From: Mobula hypostoma
Taxonomy: Eukaryota
Assembly (NCBI RefSeq): GCF_963921235.1
Contig: NC_086097.1
Location: 156,676,001 to 156,740,000 of the forward strand
Length of the DNA stretch: 64,000 bases
Direction of reading: 5' to 3'
In this document: in pieces, positions 3,133 to 49,665 of the stretch
How positions within the stretch are numbered: the first letter of the stretch is position 1
How the letters are laid out: each line of letters starts with the position of its first letter
Made by a program: the position numbers and the translations under genes
Notes under the pieces: generated by a model
The model's input: the letters and a program-made list of their open reading frames with translations, nothing else
The model's database searches: none
What the model was told of the DNA's origin: nothing

Positions 3133-4513
3133 ACCCTGCCCTCAAGTTTACCTGGTCCATTTCCGACACCTCCCTCCCCTTTCTAGATCTTTCTGTTTCT
3201 ATCTCTGGAGACAGCTTATCTACTGATGTCTTCTATAAGCCGACTGACTCTCAGAGCTATCTGGACTATTCCTCTTCTCACCCTGTCTCTTGCAAAAATG
3301 CCATCCCCTTCTCGCAATTCCTCCGTCTCCGCTGCATCTGCTGTCAGGATGAGGCTTTTCATTCCAGGATGAGGGAGATGTCCTCCTTTTTTAAAGAAAG
3401 GGCTTCCCTTCCTCCATCATCAACTCTGCTCTCAAACACATCTCCCCCATTTCACGCACATCTGCTCTCATTCCATCCCCACCACCCCATTAGGAATAGG
3501 GTTCCCCTTGTCCTCACCTACAACCCAACCAACCTCCAGGTCCAACATATAATTCTCCGTAACTTCCGCCACCTCCAACGGGATCCCACCACTAAGTACA
3601 TCTTTCCCTCCCCCCCCCCCGCTTTCCGCAGGGCTCGCTCCCTACGCAACTCCCTTGTCCATTTGTACCCCCCCATCCCTCCCCACTGATCTCCCTCCTG
3701 GCACTTATTCTTGTAAGCGGAACAGGTGCTACACATGCCCTTACACTTCCTCCCGCACCACCATTCAGGGCCCCAGACAGTCCTTCCAGGTGAGGCGACA
3801 CTTCACCTGTGAGTTGGCTGGGGTGATATACTGCATCTGGTTCTCCCGATGTGGCCTTCTATATATTGGTGAGACCCGACACAGACTGTGAGATCATTTC
3901 GCTGAACACCTATGGTCTGTCCGCCAGAGAAAGCAAAATCTCCCAGTGGCCACACATTTTAGTTCCACGTCCCATTCCCATTCTGATATGTCTATCCACG
4001 GCCTCCTCTACTGTAAAGATGAAGCCACACTCAGGTTGGAGGAACTACACCTTATATTCCGTCTGGGTAGCCTCCAACTTGATGGCATGAACGTTGGCTT
4101 CTCAAACTTCTGCTAATACCCCATCTCCCCCTCGTACCACATCTGTTATTTATTTATATACACACATTCTTTTTCTCTCTCTCCTTTTTCTCCCTCTGTC
4201 CCTCTCACTATACCCCTTGTCCATCCTCTGGGTTTTCCCCCCCTCCCCCTTTTCTTTCTCCCTAGGCCTCCTGTCCCATGATCCTGTCATATCCCTTTTG
4301 CCAATCACCTGTCCAGCTCTTGGCTCCATCCCTCCCCCTCCTGTCTTCTCCAATCATTTCAGATCTCCCCCTCCCCCTCCCACTTTCAAATCTCTTACTA
4401 ACTCTTCTTTCAGTTAGTCCTGACAAAAGATCTCGGCCCGAAACGTCGACTGTACCTCTTCCTAGTGATGCTGCCTGGCCTGCTGCATTCACCAGCAACT
4501 TTTGTGTGTGTTG
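3133..4513 (+). mobile_element. Penelope-like element (Neptune-type), 5'-truncated, frameshifted RT C-terminus plus GIY-YIG
   Basis: Motifs LPFLDL, YKPTDS.SYLDYSS.HP, CKRNRCYTC and VIYCI..SRCGLLYIGET. 12-bp TSD CTATGATCTTTC at 3121-3132 and 4514-4525. Confidence 0.93.
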
Positions 4514-4948
4514 CTATGATCTTTCTGATTGTTTTCCACTATATTTTTAATACTATAAATGAAACTCCAATCACCCATCATTCCTGTTTTTAGATTCCTC
4601 TAGTACCTTACTTCTCCTCGTCACTGAAGCATCTATAGACTTCTGACAGCTCTGCACTCCATTAGTTTTGGCCACTTATATGCCATCCATTTTCCTCTTT
4701 CATTGCTAGTTTAGGACTAACCTTGTGAAGACTCTCTGGCTCTTTCTGTTTTCTTTCAAAAGATTTTTTTAAAAGCTGCTGCTTTGGCAAAGTTCTGGCT
4801 TATCTCTCTGAATATCTTCATTTGTGCCTTGGTATCAGACTTTACTTACTGATGATCTAGAATTGTTAGTTCCAAAATTGTTCACTGCACAGTGAAGCAA
4901 GAATTTTAAGCATTTCGGAGGATCCAGAACAAACAGGGTTCTGGCACA

Positions 4949-5909
4949 TGTGACGAGAATACACATAAAATTAAGATGTTTGCTGGCCTGGGTTAGCATC
5001 AGTTGCATCAGCAAGTGGTCTGCCACCTGTCCTCAGGGGAAGGAGAGATAAGGAACAATGGAGCAGCGTCTGGAGATGTGTAATGAAGGGACGGGAGAGA
5101 AAGCTGTCTGGAGCGGCTCCCCCTTTGAACCCTGAACTGTTTGAAGTGATGGACAGACGATCTGGAGATGTGTAATGAAGGGACGGGAGAGAGAGAGCTG
5201 TCTGGAGCGGCTCCCCCTTTGAACCCTGAACTGTTTGAAGTGATGGACAGGCGATACCCCAGCAGGGGGATAAAAAGGGACAGATTCGCTAAGGCAAGAC
5301 ACACACGACACCCGAGGTAACGAAACCCTGGAAGCGGTGCGCCTCTCACGAGTCGGTGGGAAGTACCGCACATTAAACGCACAGGGTGGAAAGGTACGAT
5401 CAGCGGGAACCCGGTGTGTGTCCACCCTCGCTTGGGTGCCGGGTTCACTGCAGAGGATCGACCGCATCTGGAGGAGGGGTCACAGTCGGTGACCTCAGGT
5501 GACATCACAAAGGACCCGCCCGGAAAGCTGCTTGTGAGAAATATCGCCGGTCTGTGAGTGGAAGCCGTTTCTGAATGATCAGTCGTTCTCATTCTCTCTC
5601 TCTCTCTCCCCCCACGTTGTCCATCACCATGGCAACGATTACGGCGAACTGAACTACTAAATTGGACTGAACTTTGTGTCACTTTGAAATTGGTCATTTA
5701 TCCCTAGACAACGATAGAGCTTGATTGATGCTGTTATCTTAATTCTGTGCACATGTGTGTTTATCATTGCTGAACTGTTGCATTTATTATCCTTTCGATT
5801 ACTGTGTTGCTTGTCTCTTTAATAAAGCTTTCTTAGTTCTAGTAATCCAGACTCCAACTGAGTGATCCATTTCTGCTGGTTTGGCAACCCAGTTACGGGG
5901 TACGTAACA
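4949..5909 (+). mobile_element. Solo LTR (961 bp), Gypsy or ERV type
   Basis: TGTGACG...CGTAACA termini and a perfect 4-bp TSD CACA (4945-4948, 5910-5913). TATA-like GATAAAA near 5268 and AATAAA at 5821. Confidence 0.9.
5069..5254 (+). repeat. Tandem duplication of a 92/94-bp unit inside the LTR
   Basis: 5069-5160 and 5161-5254 are nearly identical (tctggagatgtgtaatgaaggg...gatggacag). Confidence 0.95.
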
Positions 5910-5961
5910 CACAGAAGAGGCTGGTGCAGATCAGCCATGATCATATCGAATCTCTGAGGAT

Positions 5962-6110
5962 TGTCACTTTGTCATTGTAGAGAGGTTTGAGTGCTTCTGA
6001 GATTCCAAGAGCGATGCCATCAGGAATCTAGCCATCTTGTACTTTGTACCTGGTAGGTTCACCCACAGTGGTAAGGGTAAGGGTTCGATTCCAAACAAAG
6101 ATTGATCCGG
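5962..6110 (+). mobile_element. Degenerate Rex3/Expander-like (RTE clade) 5' UTR remnant
   Basis: Resembles recalled RTE/Rex3 leader motifs (gaggtttgagtg...cctggtaggttcaccca...ccaaacaaag). No ORF. Confidence 0.4.
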
Positions 6111-7175
6111 CCAATAATTCAGCGATGGAGCTGGTGCAAGGTGATAACACATCACAAGGACAGTCATCTCGCATTCCCTGATACTCAGCCCCGACTCTGA
6201 TCCCTCAACGACCATGCAGCAGCTGCCTGTGATTCAGCCTCCCCACTCTAAACCTAGTCACACACAGACCTTCTCCATTAAGTGAATCCACCTTAACATC
6301 CTGGATAGTGATCAGTATATTGCAAAGGGGCAGGATTTTGCCTCAATCAGACACTACAGTGACCTGAAGATCCACCAGTAGTGAAACCCTTAGGACAACA
6401 TCATATTCAACACAAATGATTCTATTATTACAACTACTATTGAACGATAGGATGGACTTGAAGGGCCAGGTGGTTTATGCCTGCACCTACTTTCTTTTGT
6501 TCTTGTGCAATATAAGTCAATATTCTAGACATTGTGACAAATAAAACAAGAGTTGGAGAATATGGCTACACTTATTTGGCTTTCACAACTTGAATCATTC
6601 CAGATCTGGCAGTGCAATCTACCCACTGAATCTTAAGGGAACTGTTAGTCCACAAAACATTTCATGAACATTGTAAATACCAGCTTAACCATGAAAAAAT
6701 AGGGCAGAAACATTAACTAAATAAACAATTAGTAAGGCAAATTAAACAAAGTTATGGGTAAAATCAAGAGAGCACTGCTGGTTTCCATGCTTATTGAGTG
6801 AGAGGTTTTCTTGCTGAGTCTGGCTGTAGATGGATCAGTAATGAAAGAAAAAATGCAAATATTTGACCAAAAGCAGTAACCCTGCAAGGGAGCATAAAAT
6901 CTAAATGTTTTCCTCAACCCTGCTGCTCAGTAATTAGACAATAATATTGAGAAGGTTTGTATGTGTTAGAGATTTTACCATTTCAAAGCAAAGCCAAATA
7001 AAACCATAATTTTGAAGCCAATTAAAAAGAAACCATGATGTTAATTTTATTTTGCTTAGTTGCTGCGTAAACAAGTGTTGTTTAGGAATTCCTTTTTATA
7101 ACATTATTTTCATATCATGTGTATCATAATATGTAATCTAATCTCTAACACCTTATTGCTAATGCAACATTCTAT

Positions 7176-7388
7176 AATTCAAACAACACACATAGAAATT
7201 GCTGGTGAACGCAGCAGGCCAGGCAGCATCTATAGGAAGAGGTACAGTCGACGGTTCAGGCCTAGAGTCTCGGCCCGAAACGTCGACTGTACCTCTTCCT
7301 ATAGATGCTGCCTGGCCTGCTGTGTTCACCAGCAATTTTTACGTGTGTTGCTTGAATTTACAGCCTCTGCAGATTTCCTCATGTTTGC
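7176..7388. mobile_element. Fold-back (inverted) pair of Penelope 3' ends
   Basis: Arms 7176-7262 and 7272-7358 are reverse complements with few mismatches. Direct repeat CTATAATTCA at 7172-7181 and 7393-7402. Confidence 0.9.
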
Positions 7389-7799
7389 GATCCTATAATT
7401 CAGCGACTTGGTACATGGAAGTCCTGGAAAATGCTTAACATTCTCCCATCTGACTTGTTTCACTATCCAGTGCTGGTAATTTGGATGTCTACCAGATCTT
7501 TCGACATGTGGTTTCAGTTTGTTCAATGTGCATTGCACAATATTGTCACTAAAAATGATGACCTAGAATTTAAGATGACACTGGTGAACCACAGTGATGG
7601 GTTGTGGGCAGCTTACAAAACTTAATAACATTCTTCTGAACTACTCTTACTGCAATCTGCAACCTGTAATTTCCGATTAAGTAATGTATTTTTGAACTAC
7701 CTTAGTGAACTAGTGATTTCCCAATCTTCTGAAGGACTTGATGGACTTAATTTGCAAGCAGGCAGTTATGGCACCTTTATGCGGATGAAGGTACATTGA

Positions 7800-8470
7800 T
7801 ATAGCTGGAAGAGAGCGGAAGAGGGGAAGACTCCAAGACAAACTGAAATGCAACCATGAAACTCTCGCTACTCAGCATCTTGTTAGCAAATGTACAGTCC
7901 TGGAGAACAAGATTGAGTGCCAAAGGGATTGATTGCTGTATTGGAGGGAAATTAGGAATTGCTGCATTCTCTGTTTCACTTCGGATGTTGGTAAGACCCA
8001 GGGCTTCTTGATAGACAGGATAGATTGGACAGCTAATTTGGAGAATGCAAAAGGGTGGGGGGGGGGGTCTGTGTTTCATGATAAACTCTTTGTGATGCTC
8101 GGACACAGCAGTCTTATCTCACTATTGTTCCCCCGACCTGGAACATCAAATGATTAGGTGCCGACCATTTTCTACTTACTGAGTGAGTTCTGCTCCATGA
8201 ACCTGAGCACAGTTTACATGCTGCTAAAGGTCAATATTAAGCAGGCACCTGAGGTACTGAGTATCGCCATCAGCAAACAAGAAACATCCTTCCCCGACGG
8301 TCTTCAAGTCATTGCCGGGGAATTCAGTCAGGCTTGGTTATAAAAATCTCTGCCCAATTATTCTCAGCATATCATTTGCAGCTCCAGGAGCCCCAACACA
8401 TTCAACCACTTCTATACTACAATTGGGAATGCCTACCATTCCATGTCTAGACTGCATTTTGGGAAGTCTG
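7800..8470 (+). mobile_element. Rex1/Babar-like LINE endonuclease fragment, degenerate
   Basis: Translates across frameshifts to SILLANVQS, REIRNCCILCFT, GGG.CFMINSL, CRPFS and VIAGEFSQA. Confidence 0.7.
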
Positions 8471-10235
8471 TGCTTTCATTTAAGTTTAGTGATGTGTACT
8501 TCTTATCAGAATTGAATATGCTCACACGAAGTGCTGTATCCTGTTTTTGTTGATGAAAATATATTCTCAGAAGTTATTATTATTATTATTATTACTTATT
8601 TCTTTTTTCTTTTTGTATTTGCCTATTCTGTTGTCTTTGGCACTTTAGTTGGGGCTAGTCTTTCGTTGATGCTATTGTGTTGCTTGTATTTACTGTGAAT
8701 GCCCACAAGAAAATGAATCTCTGGTTCGTATATAGTGATTATATATATACTTTAACAATAATTTTACTTGATAAAAAGTCTGATAGCAAGGCACAAAGAG
8801 ATATTGGGCTAGGTAAGCCAGAATTTTGCCAAAAAGGTAATTTTTAGGAAACCTCGTAAAAGAAAAGCGAGATAGAAAGAGCAGAGACTTCACAAGTGAA
8901 ATCCGAAGCTGAGGACGCAGGCAGATGAAAGCACAACTGGCAGTGAAAGATGAAAATGGGAGATATGCAAGTGGCCAAAACTGGTGGAAAGCCAAGCTGT
9001 CAAAGGTCTCTCAATGTTTCAGTGATGGGGAGAAGTGAGGTCCTAGAGGGATCTCAAAACAGGGATGGGAATTGTAAAATTGACATTTTTCTGCAAAGGG
9101 AACCACTGAAAACAGAAATGCTGGGTGGATGGAATTTTATTTGACAGATTTATTTTGTGTATAAAATTGTTACAGGTGGTAAAAGAGAGATTAGCGAAGA
9201 GACAAATTAGAAAATCGCCTATGTGTAAATTGAAACAAAGGCAGGGATGATTAATGTCAGAGAAGCAAAAAATAAAGGAATGGATATGAGATCAGAAAAA
9301 AACCTGAGAGTCGGCTGGGTTGCCAGATTTAGAGACAGGCTAGTTGAGGCTTAAACAATGACCGAGGGGGTGGTGGGTGAGTGGTCCTACTGCCATTCAA
9401 GGAACAGACTAATGACCAATGTCAGCACATATTGGCAAATTACAAAGCACAAAAACTGCTGATAATTGTGAGTTTAACCTCTTGGTAACGGGAAGAAGCA
9501 TTGTGTTTGAGTGACAAGGAATAACACCAATTGAAGTTAACATGAGTGGTTTGTCACCATTCTCCTGTTCAGAATACTTGACATCTTACTGAATAATGAT
9601 TTCATCGGTGGGAAGTGCAAAGCTACTGCTTGCTTTTCTTCAACCCAATTAAGGCAGACATTGATTTATGAACTTATGTTTGAAACCTGGTAGCTGGTAT
9701 TCTTACTTTCACAATTTCGTCATCATCTGTGTGATATTCACTCGTTAACATGATTGAAAAATATCACATGCATGTTAGCTGATTACACAACTGCCACTTT
9801 GATATCTACAGATTTTGACCTACAGTACATACCTTCAAAGTATAACAGATGCCTTCTGGTCCATTTCTGCGGGCAGCAAGCTGCCTCTTCCCCTCAGTCC
9901 CTTACCTTCATTTACCTGAAACAGAATATTGGTCCCTTAAATTGGCTTTCAATCAATGAGGCTGCATGCAAGGCAAAACCTTCCCACTTAAAGTTCAAGA
10001 CCCCTCCCCAACCCCTGTCAAAGAAGTGCTTTAACAGTTGATGAAACTGCATTCACAGTCATGGGAATATCTGTCAGAAATAATTGTGAAAATTTCTGAC
10101 AGACGTAAACAATGTAAAGTATTTAAAATATAAGGACATTCATTATATTATTAAAATGACATTTATTATATAAAAATTAAATCAGAAACTCCAGAGAGTA
10201 CATAAAAGAGCCCAGATGTCCCAGTCTAGACCATC

Positions 10236-10512: not shown

Positions 10513-10600
10513 GCTGCTAAGAAAGTGTATAAGTTGATGTTTTGCTATTGGACTCCCTCAACACATCAGAATACATTTAGAATTATGACAGAAACTTACA

Positions 10601-11871
10601 CCTCTACCACTACTCTGCTCCGTCTAGCGGAATTAGTCCTTACTCTTAATAATTTCTCCTTTGGCTCCTCCCACTTCCTCCAAACTAAAGTTGTAGCTAT
10701 GGGCACCCGTATGGGTCCTAGCTATGCCTGCCTTTTTGTTGGCTTTGTGGAACAATCTATGTTCCGTGCCTATTCTGGTATTTGTCCCCCACTTTTCCTT
10801 CGCTACATCGACGACTGCATTGGCGCTGCTTCCTGCACGCATGCAGAGCTCGTTGACTTTATTAACTTTGCCTCCAACTTTCACCCTGCCCTCAAGTTGA
10901 CCTGGTCCATTTCTGACACCTCCCTCCCCTTTCTAGATCTTTCTTTCTCTGTCTCCGGAGACAGCTTATCCACTGATGTCTACTATAAGCCTACTGACTC
11001 TCACAGCTATCTGGACTATTCCTCTTCTCACCCTGTCTCTTGCAAAAACGCCATCCCCTTCTCGCAATTCCTCCGTCTCCACCGCATCTGCTCTCAGGAT
11101 GAGGCTTTTCATTCTAGGACGAGGGAGATGTCTTTCTTTTTTAAAGAAAGGGGCTTCCCTTCCTCCACTATCAACTCTGCTCTTAAACGCATCTCCCCCA
11201 TTTCACGTACATCTGCTCTCACTCCAACCTCCCGCCACCCCACTAGGAATAGGGTTCCCCTGGTCCTCACCTACCACCCCACCAGCCTCCGGGTCCAACA
11301 TATTATTCTCCGTAATTTCCGCCACTTCCAACGGGATCCCACCACTAAGCACATCTTTCCCTCCCCCCATCTCTCTGCATTCCGCAGGGATTGCTCCCTA
11401 CGCGACTCCCTTGTCCATTCGTCCCCCCCATCCCTCCCCACTGATCTCCCCCCTGGCACTTAGCCGTGTAAGCGGAACAAGTGCTACACATGCCATTACA
11501 CTTCCTCCCTTAACACTATTCAAGGCCCCAAACAGTCCTTCCAGGTGAGGCAACACTTCACCTGTGAGTCGGCTGGGGTGATATACTGCGTCCGGTGCTC
11601 CCGATGTGGCCTTTTATATATTGGCAAGACCCGACGCAGACTGGGAGACCGCTTTGCTGAACACCTACGCTCTGTCCGCCAGAGAAAGCAGGATCTCCCA
11701 GTGGCCACACATTTTAATTCCACATCCCATTCCCATTCTGACATGTCTATCCACGGCCTCCTCTACTGTAAGGATGAAGCCACACTCAGGTTGGTGGAAC
11801 AACACCTTATATTCCGTCTGGGTAGCCACCAACCTGATGGCATGAACATCGACTTCTCTAACTTCCGCTAA
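10601..11871 (+). pseudogene. Penelope RT plus GIY-YIG endonuclease reading frame with one premature stop (TAG 11461-11463)
   Basis: ORFs 10525..11463 and 11545..11871 share a frame. The paralog reads TAT (Tyr) at the stop position. Confidence 0.9.
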
Positions 11872-12166
11872 TGCCCCACCTCCCCCTCGTACCCCATCTG
11901 TTACTTATTTTTATACACACATTCTTTCTCTCACTCTCCTTTTTCTCCCTCTGTCCCTCTGAATATACCCCTTGCCCATCCTCTGGATCCCCCTCCCCCC
12001 TTGTCTTTCTTCCCGGACCTCCTGTCCCATGATTCTCTCGTATCCCTTTTGCCTATCACCTGTCCAGTTCTTGGCTCTATCCCTCCCCCTCCTGTCTTCT
12101 CCTATCATTTTGGATCTCCCCTTCCCCCTCCAACTTTCAAATCCCTTACTCACTCTTCCTTCAGTT

Positions 12167-12202
12167 AGTCCTGACGAAGGGTCTCGGCCTGAAACGTTGA
12201 CT
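12167..12202 (+). ncRNA. Minimal type I hammerhead ribozyme motif
   Basis: AGTC-CTGACGA-AGGGTCTCGGCCT-GAAA-CGTT-GACT: intact CUGANGA/GAAA core, stems I and II, palindromic AACGTT stem III. Confidence 0.8.
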
Positions 12203-12559
12203 GCACCTCTTCCTAGAGATGCTGCCTGGCCTGCTGCGTTCACCAGCAACTTTGATGTGTGTTGCATGAAGTTTGAGGCATTCAGGCTTGATTGAGTGAT
12301 CCTTAGGAGTGATTTTGTTTATCAATGTAGTCCAATAATCACAATATGGTTAATGATAATCCATGTACCCTAATTGGCTATTTAATAACAATGATCCCTG
12401 TCTGCTGAAATGCTTGTGAAAACAAGATTTCTTTCAACAGGCACCATAAGCACTGGAAAGATACACATCATCAATGTCCTTATGAAATTTTCTAGAAAAA
12501 TAAGTGAACTAACAATGCTATTCTTCTCCAGACCCTCATTCCTGGTATTGAGGTGCAAG

Positions 12560-15108: not shown

Positions 15109-17197
15109 CTAGTAGCTCTACTTCTACCTTTTTTAAACCTCTGTCTTTTTCTCTGCATTTATTTTTCCAGTTCGTTTTTAAATGCCACAACTGCTTCTTT
15201 ATTCATGCCACTATCTGATCTAACCCCCCATATAGCTCATCCTTCATCCTTTCAATTCCACAGTCTACACCCTTCCAATCCCCCACTCTCCCTCCACTTC
15301 ACATCCTGCTCTCTCCACATTCCCCTCCCGATTCTCTATTCCCCATCTCATACCAATCCTTTAGCAGTGCATTCCAAATTCTAGCTACCTACAGAGCAAA
15401 GATGTTTTCCTTTTATCACTTCTGCCAATTAGTTTAATTCATTCTACCCCGGATCTTAACCCTTCCAGGAAATACAGCATTTTCTTTCTATCAGTTTAGT
15501 AATGATGACATGCAATTAATTAATGAGACCATCTGGGACCATGTAACAGTTCGGCCCATAACAGTTGCTTACTTCTGTTTAAATCATAAGATTTTGGATG
15601 AAGGAGAGCACAGAAGTGATAGGCTTATTCTTTAGGGAAGAACAGTCTGTTAACATGCTTTCCTTCCTGGACCAGTCTGAATCTAATCCTAAAATCCTAT
15701 TCCTTTTCTTTCACAAGACATTCAATATTTATAACACCCCCATATTTAAGATAAATGTAAGTGCATGGCTTGTGCTAAGCATAGTAAAAGTTCATATTGT
15801 TATATTTATTGAAAGGAAGAATTTAATTGCCTAAATATTAGCTTTCCTGTTCAGATGTCCACAATTATGTTTTGTGTACGCCTACATAATACCAATTTGT
15901 TGGCATCAATGAAAGAAAAGCTTTCCAATCAGGACACAAGTGAAAGTATTAATTAAACATTTCATTGCGTAGTGTTCAGAACTTTAAATAACATCTCCTG
16001 AAATTATTCAAAGCATTGACAGCACCAGGAATGATGCATCCCCTTCTCCTCCTGAAATGTACAGATACATATTTAATTGCCAATGTTTGAGCAAACCTCA
16101 GCAGTCATTATCACATCAAACTTAAAACATAACCAATCATTTTTTATTGATTGTTTCTTTTATTAGTTTGGGGATACAACAATATTCACCGAGTATTGTG
16201 CTTAAAGCAGGGAACCATAATGCAAACTATGTTGGGTTCCTCTCTGCTTTTAGCAGAAGTCAAATTTAATGGAACTCAATTTGTCAATATACTTGGGACC
16301 AGAACTTTATTTTTACTTGTCAGATGCAGGTCACTCCAATTGTTAATGTACCAGTTGAAAAGCACCCTTTATACCTCTCCCAGCTTGTATTTGTCCCATA
16401 ATCTTTCAAACCCCAGGATTGCCACCATCTCACTGTTGATGCACAATTCACACACTTTCTATCAGACAGTGGATTCCACAGAAAAGATTCTCAATGGTAA
16501 TCCTTAAAATAAATCCATATTGAATTATGCATATTTTAAAACTGAACTACTTAATGGACATGACTAATCCTTCCAGTCACACAGGCAAGCATTATTCATA
16601 AACTGGCAATAGTGTTGTGCTCAGGTTGCTCACTAACAATAAAACCCATTGTGATCTCCTGCTGTGTAACTAGAATATGACATTGGGATGAACAGACTCT
16701 GCTCCTGCTCTTGCCGCAAGATAAAATCCATAGCCATTGAGCAAACCAGCATAATAACAGAAAATGCTGGAAATATTCAGTGGGTCGGACTGGACGGATG
16801 CTGACTGGCATGCTGAGTATTACCAGCATTTTCTGTTATGAGTTTAGATTTCCAGCATTTGCAGCTTTTTTGTTGGATTTTCTTGAACAAAGCAAAGCCC
16901 TGCGGAAGGGTAAAGCATCACAATGCACCAATCATCTGGTCAATAAAACTGCTTTTTTGGCATTGACCGCAGGGTAGTGCCTCGTAGAGCTTGAACTTCA
17001 GATCGATTCCACCACAATTTACCTGCCTTCTACCCAGCCTCTATGGTGGTTCCATGGCATCCAATCCTATAATAGGAGAAGATGAATAAATTCAAATGAA
17101 AAGTCAAGTCAATCCTGATGCAGGGTCTCGATCCGAAACATCAACAGTGCCTTTCCTCCACAGATGCTGCTTGATACCTGAGCTCCTCCAGCAGATT

Positions 17198-20620: not shown

Positions 20621-20625
20621 TATAG

Positions 20626-36892: not shown

Positions 36893-36896
36893 CTAT

Positions 36897-37114
36897 ATTT
36901 GAACAACACACACAAACTGCTTCAGGAACTCAGCAGGACATGCAGCATCCATGGAAAAAAGTACAGTCAACGTATCGGGCCGAAACCCTCCAGTCTTGCC
37001 AGATGGCTTTCGCCTGAAACGTTGACTGTAATTTTTCCATAGATGTTGCATGGCCTGCTGAGTTCCTCCAGCATTTTGTGTGTATTGCTCGGATTTCCAG
37101 CATCTGCAGATTTT
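36897..37114. mobile_element. Second fold-back pair of Penelope 3' ends
   Basis: A minus-oriented arm to about 36995 and a plus-oriented arm from about 37005 meet within the hammerhead region. Confidence 0.8.
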
Positions 37115-39910
37115 CATAGAACATAGAACATAGAATAGTACAGCACAGTACAGGCCCTTTGGCCCACAATGTTCAACCCTTAACCCCTGCCTCCCATATA
37201 ACCCCCCACCTTAAATTCCTCCATATACCTGTCTAGTAGTCTCTTAAATTTAATTAGTGTATTTGCCTCCACCACTGACTCAGGCAGTGCATTCCATACA
37301 CCAACCACTCTCTGAGTAAAAATCCTTCCTCTAATATCCCCCTTGAACTTCCCACCCCTTACCGTAAAGCCATGTCCTCTTGTATTGAGCAGTGGTGCCC
37401 TGGGGAAGAGGCGCTGGCTGTTCACTCTATCTATTCCTCTTAATATCTTGTATACCTCTATCAAGTCTCTTCTCATCTTCCTTCTCTCCAAAGAGTAAAG
37501 CCCTAGCTCCCTTAATCTCTGATCATAATGCATACTCTCTAAACCAGGCAGCATCCTGGTAAATCTCCTCTGTATCCTTTCCAATGCTTCCACATCCTTC
37601 CTATAGTGAGGCGACCAGAACTGGACACAGTACTCCAAGTGTGGCTTAACCAGAGATTTATAGAGCTGCATCATTACCTTGCGACTCTGAAACTCTATCC
37701 CTCGACTTTTGAAAGCTAACATGCCATAAGCTTTCTTAACTACCCGATCCACCTGTGAGGCAACTTTCAAGGATCTGTGGACATGTATCCCCAGATCCCT
37801 CTGCTCCTCCACACTACCGAGTATCCTGCCATTTACTTTGTACTCTGCCTTGGAGTTTGTCCTTCCAAAGTGTATCACCTCACATTTCTCCAGGTTGAAC
37901 TTCATCTGCCACTTCTCTGCCCACTTCTGCATCCTATCAATGTCTCTCTGCAATCTTTGACAACCCTCTACACTATCTACAACACCACCAACCTTTGTGT
38001 CGTCTGCAAACTTGCCAACCCACCCTTCTACCCCCACATCCAGGTCGTTAATAAAAATCATGAAAAGTAGAGGTCCCAGAACAGAACCTTGTGGGACACC
38101 ACTAGTCACAATCCTCCAATCTGAATGTACTCCCTCCACCACCACCCTCTGCAGACCAATCCTGAATCCACCTGGCCAAACTTCCCTGGATCCCATGCCT
38201 TCTGACTTTCTGAATAAGCCAACTGTGTGGAAGTTGTCAAATGCCTTACTAAAATCCATGTAGATCACATCTATTGCACTACCCTCATCTATATGTCTGG
38301 TCACCTCCTCAAAGAACTCTATCAGGCTTGTTAGACACGATCTGCCCTTCATAAAGCCATGCTGACTGTCCCTGATCAGACCATGATTCTCTAAATGTCC
38401 ATAGATCCTATCTCTAAGAATCTTTTCCAACAGCTTTCCCACCACAGACGTAGGGTTCACTGGTCTATAATTACCCGGACTATCCCTACTACCTTTTATG
38501 AACAAGGCGACAACATTCGCTTCCTTCCAATCCTCCGGTACCATTCCCATGGACAACGAGGGCATAAGGATCCTAGCCAGAGGCTCAGCAATCTCTTTCT
38601 TCGCCTCGTGGAGCAGCCTGGGGAATATTCTGTCAGGCCCCGGGGACTTTTCCGTCCTATTGTATTTTAACAACTCCAACATCTCCTCTCCCTAATATCA
38701 ACATGCTCCAAAACATCAACCTCACTTATATTGTTCTCACCGTCATCAAGTTCCCCCTCATTGGTGAATACCGAAGAGAAGTATTCATTGAGGACCTCGC
38801 TCACTTCCACAGCCTCCAGGCACATCTTCCCACCTTTATCTCTAATCAGTTCTACCTTCACTCCTGTCTTCCTTTTGTTCTTCACATAATTGAAGAATGC
38901 CTTGGGGTTTTCCTGTACCCTACTCACCAAGGCCTTCTCATGCCCCCTTCTTGCTCTCCTCAGCCCCTTCTTAAGCTCCTTTCTTGCTTCCCTATATTCC
39001 TCAATAGGCCCATCTGATCCTTGCTTCCTAAACCTTATGTATGCTGCCTTCTTCCGCCTGACTAGATTTTCCACCTCACTTGTCACCCATGGTTCATTCA
39101 CCCTGCCATTCTTTATCTTCCTCACTGGGACAAATTTATCCCTAAGATCCTGCAAGATATCCCTAAATATCGACCACATGTCCATAGTAAATTTCCCTGC
39201 AAAAAAATCATCCCAATTCACACCTGCAAGTTCTAGCCTTATAGCCTCATAACTTGCCCTTCCCCAATTAAAAATTTTCCTGTCCTCCCTGATTCTATCC
39301 CTTTCCATGATAATGCTGAAGGCCAGGGAGTGGTGGTCACTGTCCCCCAGATGCTCACCCACTGAAAGATCTGTGACCTAACCCGGTTCATTACCTAATA
39401 CTAGATCTGGTATTGCATTCCCCCTAGTTCGCCTTTCAACATACTGTGACAGAAATCCATCCAGGACACACTTAACAAACTCAGCCCCGTCTAAACCATT
39501 TGAACTAATCAGGTGCCAATCAATATTAGGGAAGCTAAAGTCACCTGTGATAACAACCCTGATATTTTTGCACCTTTCCAAAATCTGCCTCCCAATCTGC
39601 TCCTCAGTATCTCTGCTGCTACCAGGGGGCCTATAGAATACTCCCAATAGAGTAACTGCTTGCTTCCTGTTCCTGACTCCCACCCATACTGACTCAAAAG
39701 AGGATCCTGCTACATTACCCACTGTTTCTGTAGCTGTAATAGTATCCCTGACCAGTAATTACACCCCCCCCTTCCCCCCCCCCATTCCTTTTAAAGCATT
39801 GAAATCCAGGAATATTGAGAATCCATTCCTGCCCTGGTGCCAGCCAAGTCTCTGTAATGGTCACTACAACATAATTCCATGTATGTATCCAAGCTCTCAG
39901 TTCATCACCT
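37115..39910 (-). mobile_element. CR1 LINE with nearly complete, frameshifted ORF2 and (TTCTATG)n tail
   Basis: ORFs 39378..39722 (GVFYRPP, TGDF), 38667..39362 (GDSDHH) and 37180..38682 (RT, KFADD). Tail catagaacatagaacatagaa. Confidence 0.96.
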
Positions 39911-41470
39911 TTCTTCTCTTGTTTGTGATTATGTTACATATGTACCCAAGGGGGACCAATATCCTTGCAGTGGGTTTGCTAGAGCTGTTGAAGATGGTTT
40001 AAACTAATCTGGTAGGGGAATGGGAAACTGAGTGATAGGCTGAGGATAGGCCTGTTGGTATAATACCAGATGCAGTGTGCAATGAGATTGTCAAGAAGGA
40101 CAGGCAAAAGATAGGGCAAAATTGCAGTCAGTGGGCTGAGTTGCAGAATAACACAGAGACAAAAATTTAAAAAGGTGACAAATATAGCCCTGTAGGTGTA
40201 ATATTTGAATGCACGCAGTATATGGAATAAGGTAGGTGATCTTGTAGTGCAGTTAGAGATTTGTGGGTATGGCGATGTGGGCATCACTGATCTGTGGCTG
40301 AAAGAAGATCATAGTTGGGGGCTTAACATCCAAAGATATAGATTGTAATGAAAGAACAGGCAGATAGGCAGAGGGAGATGGGGTGGCTCTGTTGGTAAAA
40401 AGTGAAATAAAATATTTAGAAAGAGTTAGCATAGGATCAGAAAATGTAAAATCCTTGTGGGTAGAGTTAAGATACTGCAAGGATAAAAAGACCCTGATGG
40501 GAGTTATATACAGCCCTCCGAACAGTAGCCAGGATGTGGGCTACAAATTACAATAGGAGATACAAAACACATGTCAAGAGGGCAACGTTACAATAGTCAT
40601 GTTTGATTTCAGTATGCAGATAGATTGGGAAAATTAGGTTTGTGCTGAATCCCAAAAGAGAGAATTTGTAAAATACATACGAGGTGGCTTTCTAGAGTAA
40701 CTTGAGGTTGAGCCCACTAGGGGAAAGGCAATTCTGGATTGGATGTTGTGTAATGAACCAGATTTGATTAGGGAGCTGAGCGTAAAGGAATCTTTTGAGG
40801 CAGTGATCATAATATAATGACTTCACCCAGCAATTTGAGAGGGAGAGAATAAAGTCAGATGCATCAGTATTACAGTGGGGTAAAGGTAATTGTAGAGTCA
40901 TAAGCAAAGAGCTGGCCATAGTTGATTGGAAGGGGATGCTATCATGGATAACAACAGAACAGCGAAGACTGGAGTCTCTGGGAGAAATTCAGAAGGTGCA
41001 GGATAGAAGTAGAAGGAGTTTTTCTAAAAGCGGGGGACACAACCTCGGTTGACCAAGGAAGTCAAAAACAACAGAAAATTCAAAGAGAGGGCATATAATA
41101 GAGCAAAAATTATTTTGAAGCTAGCTGATTGGAAAGCTTTAAAAAACAACAGAAGGCAACTGAAAAAGCCATAAGGAGAGAAAAGATGAAATATGAAGTT
41201 AAGCTCGGCAATGGAGTCATAGAGTAATCGAGTGGCACAGCACAGAAACAGGACCTTCGGCCCATCTAGTACGTGCTGAACAATTTAAACTCTCTAGTCC
41301 CATCGTCTGCTCTGGACCAAGCCATCCATAACCCTACTATCCATGTATCTATCCAAACTGTTAAGGCTGCCTAACGACATAAGAGTCCAGGGTATTACAG
41401 GAAAGATAATAGCATGGAGAGAGCACTGGCTGATTGGCAGGAAGCAAAGAGTGGGAGTAAAAGGAGCCTT

Positions 41471-41845
41471 ACACAAGGAAATCTGCAGATGCTGTAATTT
41501 CAAGCAACACACATAAGAGTTGCTGGTAAACACAGCAGGCCAGGCAGCATCTATTGGAAGAGGTACAGTCAACGTTTCGGGCCGAGACCCTTCGTCAGGA
41601 CTAACTGAAGGAAGAGCTAGTAAGAGATTTGAAAGTGGGAGGGGGAGGGGGAGATCCAAAATGATAGGAGAAGACAGGAGGGGGAGGGATGGAGCCAAGA
41701 GCTGGACAGTTGATTGGCAAAGGGGATATGAGAGGAACCTAGGACGGGAGGCCTAGGGAGAAAGAAAAGAGGAGGGGTGAAGCCCAGAGGATAGGCAAGG
41801 AATATAGTGAGAGGGATAGAGGGAGAAAAAAGAGAGAGAGAAAAA
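41471..41845 (-). mobile_element. Penelope 3' repeat nested in CR1
   Basis: Reverse-complement match to the 3' region of the 3133 and 10601 copies. Confidence 0.92.
41567..41602 (-). ncRNA. Minimal hammerhead ribozyme motif (best-preserved copy)
   Basis: Minus strand AGTC-CTGACGA-AGGGTCTCGGCCC-GAAA-CGTT-GACT. Confidence 0.82.
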
Positions 41846-41866
41846 GACCACCTTTTTTAAATTATA

Positions 41867-42486
41867 CGAGGGGTGATTGATAAGTTTGTGGCCTAAGGTA
41901 CAAGGAGTCAATTTTAGAAAACCTAGTATATTTAGTTTTCAACATAGTCCCCTCCTACATTTACACACTTAGTCCAGCGGTCGTGGAGCATACGGATCCC
42001 TTCTTTGTAGAAGTGGTCCACAGCAGGGGTGATTGATAAGTTGGTGGCCTAGGTAGAAGGAGATAAGTTATTAACTTCCAACTTTCTGCATAATCACTCA
42101 AGAGTTGCACTGCGCATGCATGTGCCAAGAGCATCTTGGACCTCCTGGTGGTCCATAGCAGGGGTGATTGATGAGTTCGTGGCTTTAGGTAGAAGGTGAT
42201 GAGATATACAGCTCTTGTTACACGCACGTGCAGTTCAACTCTTTGAGTGAAAATGCAGAATGTTTGAAGTTAATAACTCATCTTCTTCTACTTTAGGCCA
42301 CGAACTTATCAATCACCTCTGCTGTGGACCACCTCTGGAGGTCCAAGGCACCGACTTCTACAAAGAAGGGATCTGTAGGCTTCACGACTGCTGGACTAAG
42401 TGTGTAAATGTAGGAAAAATAAACGTGCTAAGTTTTCCAAATTGACTCCTTCTACCTTGGGCCACGAACTTATCAATCACCCCTCG
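41867..42486. mobile_element. Mariner-derived fold-back MITE, copy 2 (expanded)
   Basis: TA-CGAGGGGTGATTGATAAG...CTTATCAATCACCCCTCG-TA. The left arm on the minus strand encodes FYKEGIRMLHDRWTKCVNVGGDYVEN*. Confidence 0.92.
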
Positions 42487-45400
42487 TATGTCAATGATTT
42501 GGATGATGGAATTGAAGGCACTGTCACCAAGTTTGCGGATAATATGAAAATAGGTGGCGGGGAAGATAGAGTTGAGAAAGTGGGGCGACTGCAGAAGGAT
42601 GTAGACAGACTAGGAGAATGGACAAAAAGTAGCAGATTGAAGTGTACGGCCATGCACTTTGGAAGAAGGAGCAAAAGCGTAGATTATATTCTAAACTGAC
42701 AGAAAATTCCAAGGTGTCAAGGTACTTGGAAGTCCTCATGCAGGATCTCCTAAGGGATAACTTGCAGACTGAGTCGATGGCGAGGAAGGCAAATGTATTG
42801 TTAGCATTCATTTTGCGAGGACTGGAATATAAAAGCAAGGATGTAATGCTAAGGCTTTATAAGGCACTGCTGAGGCCTCATTTGGAGTATTGTGTGCAGT
42901 TTTTGGCCTCTTATCTAAGAAAAGATGTGCTGACTTTGGACAGGGTTCTGAGGAGGTTCACAAAACTGATTTCAGGAATGAAAGAATTATCATAGGAGGA
43001 ACATTTGATGGTTCTGGGCCTACACTCACTGGAATTTAGAAGAATGGGGATGGATCTCACTGAACCCCATCAAATGTTTAAAGACCAAAATAGAGTGGAT
43101 CAGGAGAGGACGCTTCCTATAGTAGGGTAGTCTAGATCAGAGGGAACAGCTTCAGAATAGAGGAATGTCCATTTGGAATGGAGTTGAGAGGAATTTCTCT
43201 AGCCAGAGGGTGGTGAATCTGTGGAATTCATTGCCACAGGTGGTGTGGAAGCCAGGTTGTTATGTGTATTTAATGCAGAAGTTGATAAGTGCTTGATTAG
43301 TTAGGACGTGAAAGGTTATGGGGAAGAATCAGGAATATGGGGTTGGGAGAGAAAATGGATCAATCATGATGAAATGGCAGAGGAAACTTGATGCGTTGGA
43401 TGGCCTAATTCTACTCCTTCCTCTTATGAGCTTATGGTCTTATTCCTCTCTGTGTGGCCTCCAAAGAAACCTATTATAAGCGAAATGTTTTGTTTATTTG
43501 GTAACAAATAGACTGAATTTAGCCAATCTCTACTACATAAACCATTCCAGACACAATATTCTCATCTCAAGAGAATTCTCATTCTAATGAGACAGATTCT
43601 TATCACCTCTCCTTATTTTAAACTTTTAGGATCATTCATTCTTTCTAAAACTACCCAGAATATAGTGTGTAGCTGAAAATTGTGTTACCATGGAGTAGAA
43701 CTGGATGACAAACATGACTTCTGACTAAAACACTGTACTACTGTAAAAGTGCTTTAATGTTGCCTGCAATAGCACAACTCACAAATGTCTCTGACTTCTC
43801 ATCTTTCTTTTCCAGTCCTGATGAAGGATCTCAGCCTAAAATATTGATTGTTTACTCTTTTTCCATAGATGCTGTCTGCTGACCTCCTCCAGCATTTTGT
43901 GTGTGTTGCTTGGAATCTATGACAGCATATTTTCTTATGTTTGTCACAAATGTCCATCTTCATTAATCCAAATAAATGTCAGTTCTGTTTTTCTTATAGT
44001 GCAATATACTTTCATTGACTGTTTCCTCTGCTATCTGAGGTTGTATTCAATATATATGCTTTAACACATTGCTCCAGAGCATCCTGTTGTCTAACTGTTT
44101 TCCCCAGCAATTAACCTTTCTTACATCTTTGACACCTTTTCCACACTGATTTGCAGTAAAGAGTTGCCAGTAACTAAGCTCTCTTGTCATGTGGTAAGGA
44201 GATGAATCAGGGACATTATTACAACACAAACAAAATGCTGGAGGAACTCAGCAAGCCAGGTAGCATCTAGGAAAAGAGTACAGTCGACAGTGTTAGAGTG
44301 AGTTTTTGGGTAGATGATTCATTTACATTTAAGTGGCTTTGGCCACCAGTCTTCTGTTTGACAAAGTACTGTGGATTGAGTTCACAACAATCATCATCAT
44401 CATCATCATCAGGTGCCATGCCCAGTTTGAGCTTTGACTGCCGTGGCCCACACACTCCTGTTTCGGGTCAAGTGGATCAATTCATTGGTATTCATTTCCA
44501 GTTCTCTGGCTGCTGTCTCCATCATCATTTGTCTTTGTCTTCCTCTTGCTTTCTTCCCTTCAATCTTTCCCATAATTACCATGCATTCTAACTCCTCTTT
44601 CCTCATCACAGGTTCAATGAAGTTACGTTGCCTTTCATGATCTCATACATTATTTCTCCTTTTGTGTTTGCTCTGTTCATAACATCCTTGTTAGATATTC
44701 GTTTCGTCCATGATATTCTTTGCATCCTCCTCAAAAACCACATCTCTGCTGTTTCAATTCGTTTCCTCATGTTACTAGATATTGTCCAACATTCTGAGCT
44801 GTATAACATAACTGGATAAATGTAACATTTCAGTACTCTGAGGCGGGTTGTCATGCCTAGTTTAGTATTGGTCAGAATACTCTTCATTCTCGCAAAGGTG
44901 TCTTTTGCCATCCCTATTCTTCTTTTGATGTCCATGTCACACCTGCCATCTGATCTTACCCAGCTTCCTAAGTAGCAAAAGTTCTGTACATGTTTTATGC
45001 GTTCCTCATTTATTCTCAGCCTGCAGATAGGATTCTTCTTCCTTTTGGATATCATCATACATTCTGTCTTTTTGCAATTGATAGATAGACCCAATGTTTG
45101 CACTTTCTTCAACAACTATATCAATTAAGTTTTGTAGTTCTTCCTCTGTGCTTGCAATTAACACCATGTCATCTGCATATCTGAAATTATTGATGTTTTC
45201 ACCTCCAACTTTGATTCCCAAGATGTCCCATATTTCTTGTAATATTGTTTCACTGTACACAGTAAATAAATCAGGCGAGAAAACATACCCTTGTCTAACA
45301 CCTGTCTTGACGTTCGTAAACTGACTCACTTCTCCATCTATTCTTACAGCGGCAGTTTGTTCCCAGTACAGATTTCTGATTAGGCGGAGGTCTTTCTAAT

Positions 45401-46060
45401 CTAGATCTAGAGTTTTCTGTAATATTTAAAATAACTTATTGTGCTTCACTTTATCAAATATTTGTGTGTAGTCGATAAAACAAACAATCTTTTTGCACTT
45501 GAATAGCTCATTCTGATAGTATCCTTAACATCAATATTGCATTTCTTGTACCCTTGTCTTTCACAAAAACATATTGTTCTTTACCTATTTCAGTTTGTGT
45601 CTTACTTTTAGCTCTTGTCATCAAAATTCTTAGAAGTATCTTGGTGATATGACTCATTAAACTTATTGTCCTAAGTAATTCACATTCTATTGCTCCAGCT
45701 TTCTTAGGAAGAGTGATAAATATTGATTTTTTCATCTCTTCTGGTATTATTCCAGTGTCATAAATGTCATTGATTAAATCAGTAAGTTTTTCAATTCCAT
45801 TATCTTCAAAGGCGATAATTTGTTCTATTACTAATTCATCAGGACCTGCTACCTTTCCTTTCTTCATCTTATTTATTGCGTTATGAACTTCAGATTTTAA
45901 AATACTTGGACCTTCAATATTTTTCTTAATTTCTGGTTTTTCACCTCAATCGTCTTCAAACAATTCTTGAATATACTCAGTCCATCTGTTCATAATCCCA
46001 TCTTTTTCCATGATAATGGTACCGTCCTTTGCTATCAAGCGTCCACCTGAAGAACAGAGG

Positions 46061-46194
46061 CAACATACATAAAAGTTTCTGGTGAATGCAGCAGGCCAGG
46101 CAACATCTCTAGGAAGAGGTACAGTCGACCTTTCGGGCCAAGACCCTTCATCAGGACTAACTGAAAGAAGAGCTAGTATTTGCCCATGTTTGCG
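46061..46194 (-). mobile_element. Short Penelope 3' repeat inserted into the RTE
   Basis: 13-bp TSD TGAAGAACAGAGG at 46048-46060 and 46195-46207. Confidence 0.92.
46123..46158 (-). ncRNA. Minimal hammerhead motif with mutated stem III
   Basis: Minus strand AGTC-CTGATGA-AGGGTCTTGGCCC-GAAA-GGTC-GACT. Confidence 0.65.
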
Positions 46195-47962
46195 TGAAGA
46201 ACAGAGGGGCTTTTTACCAGTGATATTCTTGATTTGTTGATGTAACCTTTTTGGATCAGTAATAGGGATTCTTTCTATTTGCTCACATTCCTGGTTTAAC
46301 CATTCTTCTTTGGCTTTTTGACATAAGCTTTTAACTTTTTTTATCTAAGGATTTATATTCTATAGGATTTGCTTTTTTCTGTATCCTTTCTTCCATTAGA
46401 TTTTTGATTTCATCTGTCATCCATTTATTCTTTGCGCTTATTTTCCTTTTTAGGAATCACTGACTTTGCTGATTCCACCAAGGCATCCTTTAGAGAGGTA
46501 AATTTCATTTCTACATGATTGCTATCATCTTCAACAGATTCTATTTCTAGACTTTGAAATCTATTCCTTACTTAATTGTAAAGTTTTGTCTTAAGTTTTC
46601 TTCTTCAGTTAATTGCAAGTAGTCAAGGGATTGTTCATGCTTTCGCTTCTTTAGTTTTTTAAAATTTACTTTGACATGACATACTACTGGGTATGGTCAC
46701 TATTACAGACTGCAGCTGGATATGTTTTGCATTGAGTCACTGAGTTTCTAAATCTGTGGTTTATAGTAATAAAGTCAACTTGATTTCTGGTGTTATCACC
46801 TGGACTTTTCCAGGTCCACAAGCTTCTTAGATGGTTTTTAAAGTAGGTATTCATAACGACCTGATTATTCATCTTGCACCATTCTACCCATTTCTCACCT
46901 CTTTCATTTCTTTCCCCGAGTCCAAATTTTCCTATGGTATTTCCATCAGCACCTTGTCCTACTTTAGCATTTAGATCTCCCATGACAAGAACAATATCTT
47001 GAGATTTGCATCCATTCTTTGCTTGTTGAAGGTCTTCATGGAATTTATCTATATCCTCATTTGTTCCATCTGTTGTTGGTGCATATACCTATATAGTTGC
47101 TAAATCAACAGGTTGTCTAACAAGGAGCACTCTTTCTGATATTGCCCAATGTCCTAAAACACTTTTTGCCATGTTTTCATCCATAAGCATTCCTACTCCA
47201 TTAGTATGGGATGTTCCACAAGAATAAATTAGTGTTTTATTTCTATCCTGACATGTTCCAGCACCTATCCAACGAACTACACTAATTCCCATGATGTTAT
47301 TCTTTAGTCTTTCCATTTCATTTATCACATTGTCTAATCTTCCTGCTTGATATAGGGTTCTTACATTCCAAGTGGCAATAATTTTCTTTTGTGTTTGAAT
47401 TTTATGAGCAGTGGCTTGATGATGGTCGGAGATCCCCTGCTGCCCAGAATCAACCTTACCGAGTGAAGCAGCTTCAGAATTGTCTTGAAGATCCTCTTGA
47501 TGCTGTTGTTGTGTGATACATTTTGTGGGTTTGACCATGGTTTTCTTAACAAATAGATTCTAGGAAACCTAGTATCTAGCAACGGTGGTTTGCTATTGCC
47601 TACCGTTGGGCGAACTAAAGAAATTGCCATTTCTCTTCCCAAATGTTTATCTGTCTGTACTATAGCCGTTGGCATTTGAGGTCCTAGCTCATCAGCCTTC
47701 TCCATCATAAGTTCAGTTACTGAACCTGCCGGATCTGCCGTTGGCCTTCGCTCGTATCCTGAGCTGGAACCCTTGCAGATGCTACCGTTTGGGGTCAGAG
47801 TGGCCCTGGGAGCAATGACTAAGGGGTAACTCCACTTTCCCCAAAGCTCTGAAAGTCCCTGATCAGAGCCTCATCACCAGTTGCAGATTAAAGTCATACC
47901 CAGGACCTTGCATTACAACAATGCATTTCCTAAAAGCTGTGAATATCAGAATACTAGCCAGA

Positions 47963-48399
47963 TGCTGTGGATGGAAGTGTGACGTTTACAGGTAGCGTCA
48001 AAGACAGCCTTATCTATACTTTATAAACATTAATTGTCCTCTATGTTAGCACGTAAAATACCAAATAAATATATTGTGGATGTAACTTGCACTCCTAAAG
48101 GCTGTGAGTACCAACCCAGACATGTTGGCGTCGGGCGGAAAGGAGAAGGAGAAGGTGTGATGTTTTGTATGTAGCTTCAAAAGGAAGCATTGTCTATGCA
48201 TTGTCTATAACTTTGTAAATAACAATTGCCCTTTGTGTTTAGCATATAAATATCGAGCCCACATTGGTCTAGCAGACCTTTCTACTGAGAGCATCTCTGT
48301 CCATATGATGCTTGTTGTACCTTGTTTTGTCGAGTAAAGAAGCTGCTTTGTATCTACCAGTGACTCTGTCTCTCTGGTGATTTCATCCACGCTACTACA
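47963..48399 (+). mobile_element. LTR-like sequence, left boundary unresolved
   Basis: TATAAA near 48245, AGTAAA near 48333 and a ...CTACTACA end. No convincing TSD. Confidence 0.45.
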
Positions 48400-48404
48400 G
48401 ACAG

Positions 48405-49665
48405 CTTGGGCCAAAACCTTTCAGCAGGACTGGAAAATAAAGTTAGGGAGTAGATTTAAACAGTGGGGGGAGGAGAGAGAGAAACGCAAGGTGACAGTTG
48501 AAACCTGTAGGGGGAAGGATGAAGTAAAGGCCGGAAATTTGATTGGTGAAAGAGGCAGAAGACCATTGAAGAAAGAAAAGGAAGGAGGAGCACTGGAAGA
48601 GATGATGGTTGGGCAAGGAGATAAGGTGAGAGAGGGAAAAGAGGATGGGAAATGGTGAAGGTGGGGGGGCGGTGGAAGGCATTACCAGAAGTTGGAGAAA
48701 ATGATGTTCATACTATCAGGTTAGAGGCTACCCAAATGGAAATAAGATGTCCTTCAACCTAAGTGTGGCCTCATCATGACAGAGGAGGAGGCCATGGACG
48801 GACACATTGGAGTGGGAATGGGAAGTGGAAATAAGTGGGTGGCCACTGGCAGTTCTCACTTTATCTTGCAGATGGAGTGTAGGTGCTCAGTGAACCCGTC
48901 TCCCAATCTATGTTGGGTCTCACCAACATACGGGAGGCTACATCGGGAGCACAAAACACAGTGTATGACCCCAACAGACTAACAGGTGACATGTCGCATC
49001 ACCTGGAAGGATTGCTTAGGTCCTGAATGGTAGTGAGGGAGGAGGATTAGGGGCAGGTGTAGTAATTGTTCCGCTTGCAAGGATAAATGCCAAGAGGGAG
49101 ATCAGTGGAGAGGGACAAGGGAGTCATTTAGGGATAGGTCCCTACGGAAAGCAGAAAGTGGAAGGGAGGGAAAGATGTACTTGGTGGTGGGATCCCACTG
49201 GAGATAGAGGAGGTTTTGGACAAGGAGACTGGTGGCGTGGTAGGTGAGGACAAGAGGAACCCTATCCCTGGTAGGGTAGTGGAAGGATGGGGTAAGGGCA
49301 GATGTGTGTGAAAAGGAAGTGATGCGTTTGACAGCAGCATTGATGGTGCCTTCCCCACCGCCCTCCCAATCCTTCACAATCTCCCATTCCCTTTTCTCTC
49401 TCGCACCTCATCTCCTTGCCTGCCTATCACTTCCCTCTGGTGCTCCTCCCCTCTTTTTTCTTTCTTCCATGGCCTTCTGTCTCTTTCACCAATCAACTTC
49501 CCAGCTCTTTACCTCATCCCTTCTCCTCCAGGTTTCACCAATCACCTAGTGTTACTCTGTCCCTTCCCCCCACCTCTTAAATCTACTCCCTAGCTTTTTT
49601 CTCCAGTCCAGCATTTTGTGCGTGTTGCTCAGATTTCCAGCATCTGCAGATGTTCTCTTGTTTGT
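48405..49665. mobile_element. Degenerate Penelope: minus-strand body (to about 49347) joined to a plus-strand 3' tail
   Basis: Minus ORF RVPLVLTYH...DPTTKYIFP. The 3' repeat is present at both outer ends in opposite orientation. Confidence 0.8.

Follow-up and report, generated by a model that had tools for sequence, protein, structure and literature searches.

Penelope-like 3' ends with a minimal hammerhead motif as a dense, probably inert family in a 64-kb stretch of Mobula hypostoma DNA

Background

Minimal hammerhead ribozyme motifs (min-HHR) were described by Cervera and De la Peña in 2014 (PMC4209133) in the terminal repeats of metazoan Penelope-like elements, and the class, its location, a dimer model of cleavage and massive copy numbers in vertebrates were all published in that work, with about 4,000 and 9,000 motifs per genome given for other vertebrates and with motifs reported in the Xena, Poseidon and Neptune elements of fishes. 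Here we analyse a stretch of 64,000 nucleotides from Mobula hypostoma (RefSeq assembly GCF_963921235.1, contig NC_086097.1, positions 156,676,001 to 156,740,000, forward strand), hereafter the window, which adds a cartilaginous-fish example to this class. We consider it very probable that the window holds 5'-truncated 3' ends of a high-copy Penelope-like element with a type-I minimal hammerhead, that the motif serves to cleave the tandem transcript of the active element, and that the scattered copies are inert.

Dimer cleavage was reported by Lünse et al. (2017, as cited in the review PMC6765202), and in the Poseidon element PAc of Anolis carolinensis the motif required the protein of the element for its cleavage (Frangieh et al. 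2024, PMC11167929), a study which also traced the inverted partner and tail of PAc copies to two internal reverse-transcription starts just downstream of the hammerhead. Animal non-LTR retrozymes also carry type-I hammerheads related to Penelope repeats, and they were found in the one chondrichthyan sampled (bioRxiv 10.64898/2026.07.22.740005). No cartilaginous fish appears in the text and supplementary table of the 2014 study that we examined, the remaining supplements of which may list chondrichthyan motifs, and no paper on the present family was found under hammerhead with cartilaginous fish or Penelope with elasmobranch, in a literature coverage that was partial.

Census and state of the motif

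A profile seeded on eight window copies returned 23 rows, from which 20 Penelope-type fragments were retained at E <= 6e-7 and three weak rows (36274, 57022 and 59937) were dropped; the reversed window, used as a control with the same profile, gave no match. A 28-nt motif pattern matched the window five times at three or fewer mismatches and did not match any of 100 dinucleotide shuffles. All 12 positions that a sequence-only reading of this DNA had named were found to bear a hammerhead motif, whole or decayed, the minus-strand positions in it being the low ends of 36-nt motifs at 41567-41602, 46123-46158 and about 48396-48431. Eight fragments come in addition to those positions, namely 7175-7270 (minus) with 7258-7377 (plus), 16796 (plus), 36897-36992 (minus) with 36988-37114 (plus), 44219-44289 (minus), 49608 (plus) and 57512-57565 (minus), and the local density is about one motif per 5 kb. 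The copies are listed below; RT, EN and UTR denote reverse transcriptase, endonuclease and untranslated region.

3096-4519, plus: frameshifted RT/EN fragment with UTR and a dead hammerhead at 4416-4451 (G8 to A, stem II broken); 90% identical to 10878-12269
7172-7402, both strands: head-to-head inverted pair, arms starting in stem II, minus arm short, plus arm with tail; flanked by a target-site duplication of 10 bp (7172 and 7393)
10591-12273, plus: longest copy, with the C-terminal part of the RT, an in-frame stop, CX4CxxC, GIY-YIG with CCHH (11464-11871), 300-nt UTR, hammerhead and short end
12167-12202, plus: hammerhead, full core, G10.1-U11.1 wobble, GUU
16796-16868, plus: tail-side fragment without hammerhead, found by the profile
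17107-17193, plus: decayed copy, motif at about 17111 (A9 to C, stem I broken)
23874-24745, plus: older-subfamily copy with EN remnant, UTR, motif at 24612 (A9 to C, G12 to U) and tail
26360-26480, plus: decayed copy with tail (G12 to A, stem II broken)
28888-29850, plus: old copy with EN remnant, strongly decayed motif near 29733 and tail
30462-30628, plus: old decayed copy, motif at 30512 with three core defects
35860-35977, plus: mini-copy with short end, motif at 35875-35910 (full core, G10.1-U11.1, stem I mismatch)
36897-37114, both strands: another head-to-head inverted pair, of the older subfamily, with a short minus arm and a tail on the plus arm
41476-41847, minus: 5'-truncated Penelope 3' end, with 3' UTR, hammerhead and long end with tail
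41567-41602, minus: complete minimal hammerhead, stem I of 4 bp, full core, extra A, stem II of 4 bp, CG palindrome, GUU; predicted cut between 41571 and 41570
43772-43940, plus: older-subfamily copy, motif at 43814 (G12 to A, palindrome and stem II altered)
44219-44289, minus: mini-copy with short end, beginning 3 nt ahead of the predicted cut site
46048-46207, minus: mini-copy with short end, motif at 46123-46158 (full core, C15.2 to G); 13-bp target-site duplication at 46048 and 46195, a few tail-end-like bases inverted at the 5' side
48396-49362, minus: old copy, RT/EN remnant present; the motif (48431) breaks off within its 3' half
49608-49654, plus: tail fragment closing a stretch (49347-49609) that lies inverted relative to 48427-48681
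57512-57565, minus: short decayed fragment, from GAAA onward

Core bases and stems were scored without gaps at 18 loci. All 11 core bases and a cleavable N17 were kept in four of them (12167, 35875, 41602 minus and 46158 minus), and the motif at 41567-41602 was the sole complete copy, with core, stem I, stem II closed by G10.1-C11.1 and the CG palindrome at 15.2/16.2, as well as the extra A after A9. The copies at 12167, 35875 and 41567 had been given an intact core, which holds; the stems are fully kept only in the last, as 12167 and 35875 have G10.1-U11.1 in place of G-C and 35875 has a stem I mismatch in addition. The copy at 46123 had been given a near-intact core, and its core bases are in fact all kept, the loss being that of the palindromic 15.2/16.2 pair. 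A pairing descriptor found two sites in the window, 12171 (plus) and 41598 (minus).

The window motif shares with the published min-HHR (PMC4209133) the type-I fold, the extra nucleotide between 9 and 10.1, G10.1-C11.1, the palindromic 15.2/16.2 without a loop 3, and the short stem I, and the two also agree in occurring mostly as solo copies of truncated elements with opposite-strand pairs nearby, in accordance with the earlier proposal of a minimal hammerhead in a Penelope-like terminal repeat whose palindromic helix III would work in dimers. Stem II is different, with 4 bp in the window family in comparison to 7-8 bp in the Schistosoma min-HHR. An Rfam scan of the window showed no hammerhead family at E <= 10; helix III of the window motif has no loop and does not form the stable helix III of the canonical Rfam type-I hammerhead. 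The top two Rfam matches, mir-641 and Plastid-psbJ-4, were under their gathering scores and were rejected; they correspond to the two inverted pairs. These pairs (7221-7313 and 36923-37067) fold as long hairpins that are weakly miRNA-precursor-like in Rfam, and double-stranded RNA is possible if they are transcribed.

Structure and covariation in related elements

Related elements were taken from metagenome contigs, using the best 80 of 482 confirmed related loci. A core-only search that did not require pairing gave 44 matches in these 80 loci, 33 of them on the strand of the open reading frame (ORF), in comparison to 2-4 per shuffle. For the covariation analysis, 34 unique motifs from relatives and window were used, with chance matches left in. 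Stem I showed pairing in 102 of 136 cells, in comparison to 56.0 +/- 5.6 on row shuffling, where 10,000 shuffles reached at most 77; for stem II the value was 110 of 136, in comparison to 74.8 +/- 4.4 and at most 94. A-U, U-A, C-G and G-C pairs all occur in stem I. G10.1-C11.1 was present in 26 of the 34 motifs, the extra A in 31 and CG at 15.2/16.2 in 20. The two subfamilies of the window have identical stems and thus add no covariation; the relatives compared are 36-65% identical in RT. The sequence-only reading had counted a lack of covariation across Penelope subfamilies as evidence against itself, and stems I and II were found to covary strongly in relatives, so that the motif is a selected RNA structure in the active elements. 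In 18 of the 40 rows examined from relatives (39 loci), it followed the ORF at a distance of 70-301 nt, and in two relatives, L006 and L044, it was found in both direct repeats, about 3.1 kb apart.

Two further observations were made on these relatives. In L006 (1028-1060), a complete relative in which two repeats flank an ORF of 964 aa, the cut site of the hammerhead is overlapped by the first ATG, at 1057, which recalls the overlap of ORF and hammerhead in the Anolis element. Changes of 15.2/16.2 to other palindromes (TA, GC) occur at L044 269 and 3421 and at L018 126, as the dimer model predicts.

Contigs of four sequencing runs were also aligned to 41450-41860, with 6,991, 5,224, 36 and 37,647 records, the summed depth of which is not a copy number. 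Loose contig ends cluster at 41602 and 41565, just beyond stem I, in all four runs, and these ends flanking a 36-nt block indicate that subfamilies agree inside the block and differ outside it. Among the variants listed, G10.1-U11.1 (window position 41579) accounted for 57% of the summed depth in run X1 and 49% in X4, but for 25% in X9 and 16% in X19; it may be due to CpG decay, the arms of the 7.2-kb pair differing at this place, or to the spread of a subfamily with a weakened ribozyme. A high motif count genome-wide is plausible given the 20 fragments in 64 kb and the 37,647 contig records in a single run. The window density looks above the published 4,000-9,000 per genome, for which counting criteria differ, and extrapolation from one window is weak, since one complete motif in 64 kb would fit genome totals of very different size. 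Among viral contigs, 43 pattern matches were obtained and none was confirmed.

Identity of the carrier element

The longest copy has the order RT, zinc-finger linker, GIY-YIG, about 300 nt, and hammerhead. The GIY-YIG domain was matched by Pfam PF01541 (E 2.9e-5) at 11464-11868, and the translation of 11464-11871 has CX4CxxC at its start and contains CCHH; the Pfam scan gave no RT match for the truncated RT piece of this copy. The RT part is 50-68% identical to full-length homologues, and the nearest named proteins to the element are from two sharks, at 67-69% identity. The hammerhead lies 300-307 nt past the GIY-YIG stop in two window copies. All window copies are 5'-truncated, and their coding remnants bear stops or frameshifts.

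A CX2-5CxxC linker together with the order of the EN part is described as defining Neptune or Nematis, the latter sharing the linker (Craig et al., bioRxiv 10.1101/2021.04.23.441226), and the order and the CX4CxxC of the window family thus point to an element of one of these. Neptune, which is described as widespread among vertebrates, has the same C-terminal GIY-YIG with CCHH, the CX2-5CxxC linker, the inverted 5'-truncated partner and the one-ended tail as the window family. Judging from these linker and domain motifs rather than a tree, and with Nematis sharing the linker, the carrier is likely an EN-containing Penelope-like element of the Neptune clade.

Insertion anatomy

The 3' ends of the copies fall into two classes about 30 nt apart, with seven copies ending at about +66 to +75 from the predicted cut and nine at about +92 to +103; of the remaining copies, 30512 reaches the tail by the profile only and three stop earlier. 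In both inverted pairs the tail is on one arm only. Target-site duplications (10 and 13 bp) were found in 2 of the 11 insertions tested and at none of the 9 others, with 4 of 1000 random pairs reaching 10 or more by chance. An inverted truncated partner and a tail of 30-40 bp at one end are described signatures of Penelope elements. The terminal-repeat hammerhead, insertion ends of two nearby classes and the optional 30-40 bp tail are likewise shared with PAc, where these ends are at internal start sites about 85-92 nt past the cut (derived from the values 111-118 and 26 of that paper) in comparison to the window classes at about +70 and +100. PAc differs in belonging to the Poseidon clade, a clade without the CX2-5CxxC linker that the window element has, and in being known biochemically, while the window family is known from sequence.

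Decay and predicted folding of the copies

The decay of the motif was analysed in 11 ungapped copies against a reference with C at N17 (the majority of depth in three of four runs and 48% in the fourth), and the same result was obtained with U, the majority in the window. Non-CpG changes were found at 7 of 99 core and 18 of 187 non-core positions (p=0.52), and CpG changes at 6 of 22 core and 25 of 77 non-core positions (p=0.80), in comparison to a marked difference between CpG and non-CpG positions as a whole (31/99 versus 25/286, p=3e-7). The decay is driven by CpG and looks neutral, with no detectable sparing of the core in this small sample.

In the isolated 36-mer at 41602, stems I and II were predicted with probabilities of 0.71-1.0. 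With at least 30 nt of flank, stem I dropped to 0.03 or less in each of the five copies folded, owing to predicted pairing between the core and a pyrimidine tract upstream. The competing hairpin so predicted is formed by the tract at 41603-41615 (minus), and by its equivalents upstream of 12167, 35875 and 46158, paired both to the core and to stem II on its 5' side. On the folding model, the tract could be an off state that is relieved by protein, or a chance pairing in a pyrimidine-rich UTR. The copies in the window are likely inert, decaying relics.

Proposed origin of the copies and alternatives

On the reading that we prefer, the tandem transcript of the active element would be cut by its hammerhead, either in dimeric form or helped by protein of the element. 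By analogy with the published Penelope work, reverse transcription may then be primed internally on the RNA, at either of two positions about 70 and about 100 nt beyond the cut, and such internally primed reverse transcription would scatter 3' fragments in which the motif is a passenger. With internal start sites, nearly every insertion longer than about 135 nt would include the motif, so that the density in the window would be explained without a host function.

Several points weigh against this. In vitro, the Anolis element inserted without requiring cleavage by its hammerhead, and RNA ends at the cut site were not seen (PMC11167929), which leaves the processing role itself unproven. There is no full-length copy in the window, the tandem structure being taken from relatives; 22 of the 40 rows of relatives have no motif past the ORF end, presumably through decay, truncation or a variant form; and the row shuffle ignores the relatedness of the sequences. 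The non-CpG rate in the core is nominally lower (7% in comparison to 10%), and a decay test on 11 copies could miss weak selection.

The first alternative is activity of solo copies in host transcripts, in which copies on one strand of a long RNA would pair through the palindromic helix III and cut it, which would amount to a genome-wide ribozyme load. One copy is complete and another nearly so, the predicted helix III self-dimer of 41602 reaches -5.7 kcal/mol, and a 2026 preprint reports retrozymes to be depleted from Xenopus introns, which hints at a host cost. However, no two intact copies lie on one strand in the window: the nearest same-strand partner of the complete copy is 46158, with a pair energy of only -1.2 kcal/mol, and 12167 and 35875, although they pair at -4.4 kcal/mol, are 23.7 kb apart and both weakened. 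The flanked folds argue in the same direction, as do the published monomers, which did not cleave, and dimers, which cleaved at a low level (PMC4209133), and the strand ratio of the copies (12:7, p=0.36) is unremarkable. No host exon was found in the 300 frames scanned out of 323 non-repeat frames of at least 45 aa, which short or unannotated exons could escape; the matches obtained were three LINE domains, ALKBH8_N near 60093 in repeat-like DNA and one below the cut-off. The ALKBH8_N model often matches LINE ends.

We therefore give such activity little probability. The effect on transcripts crossing the region that had been suggested finds no support here, with a lone complete copy that has no intact partner on its strand, neutral-looking decay, a core predicted to be masked and no host exon; on the published side, monomers do not cleave and one Penelope hammerhead that was tested needs the element's protein. 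Similarly improbable is a wider form of the idea, that this lineage has among the heaviest hammerhead loads of vertebrates, perhaps with tens of thousands of complete motifs, that intact same-strand pairs in long introns cut pre-mRNAs as dimers or when the protein of the element is expressed, and that the host selects against intact copies in sense orientation. If host RNA were in fact cut by solo copies, the remains of retrotransposons would burden the host directly at the post-transcriptional level; no finding here points there. The abundance of the family would permit well-powered genome-wide tests of in vivo cutting by Penelope hammerheads and of the purging of intact copies from sense-strand introns.

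A second alternative, which we rate marginally lower again, takes the short copies as an independent non-autonomous family of retrozyme- or SINE-like elements, multiplying via circular RNA by means of a hammerhead of their own. Apparent 5' ends at -61 to -3 of the cut site were found in 10 of the 20 fragments (7258-7270, 36988-36992, 17107, 26360, 35860, 43772, 44289 and 46182), the inversion junctions of both pairs are inside the motif or at its edge, the summed contig depth is greatest at the hammerhead and in the part 3' to it, and non-LTR retrozymes have been proposed to descend from Penelope repeats. Against this, retrozymes are tandem arrays of non-coding units, whereas the window copies are dispersed, some of them joined to RT/EN, and neither self-comparison nor the profile search showed head-to-tail units. 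The 5' ends are scattered, and some may be limits of homology because subfamilies diverge just upstream of stem I; the 3' ends agree with those of the long RT/EN-bearing copies. The idea that 5' ends at the cut site record cleavage was also rejected, as only one of the 20 fragments (44289) begins within 3 nt of it.

That the motif is no ribozyme, and stands in the terminal repeat as a signal in DNA or for protein binding or by chance, is scarcely credible: there is no Rfam hammerhead match and cleavage is dispensable in vitro in one related element (PMC11167929), but the stems on either side of the invariant catalytic core covary among elements of 36-65% RT identity, and in the Anolis motif core mutations abolish cleavage and a double mutant partly rescues it (PMC11167929).

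Other repeats in the window

Long remnants of LINE ORFs for RT and endonuclease are present at 31481-32902 (plus), 37180-39377 (minus), 52068-53027 (plus) and 44606-47559 (minus), two of them stop-free (473 and 503 aa). A repeat that shows inverted symmetry internally and may be a MITE-like DNA element occurs at 41857-42489 and 20139-20630, and the former adjoins the 5' end of the 41.6-kb Penelope copy.

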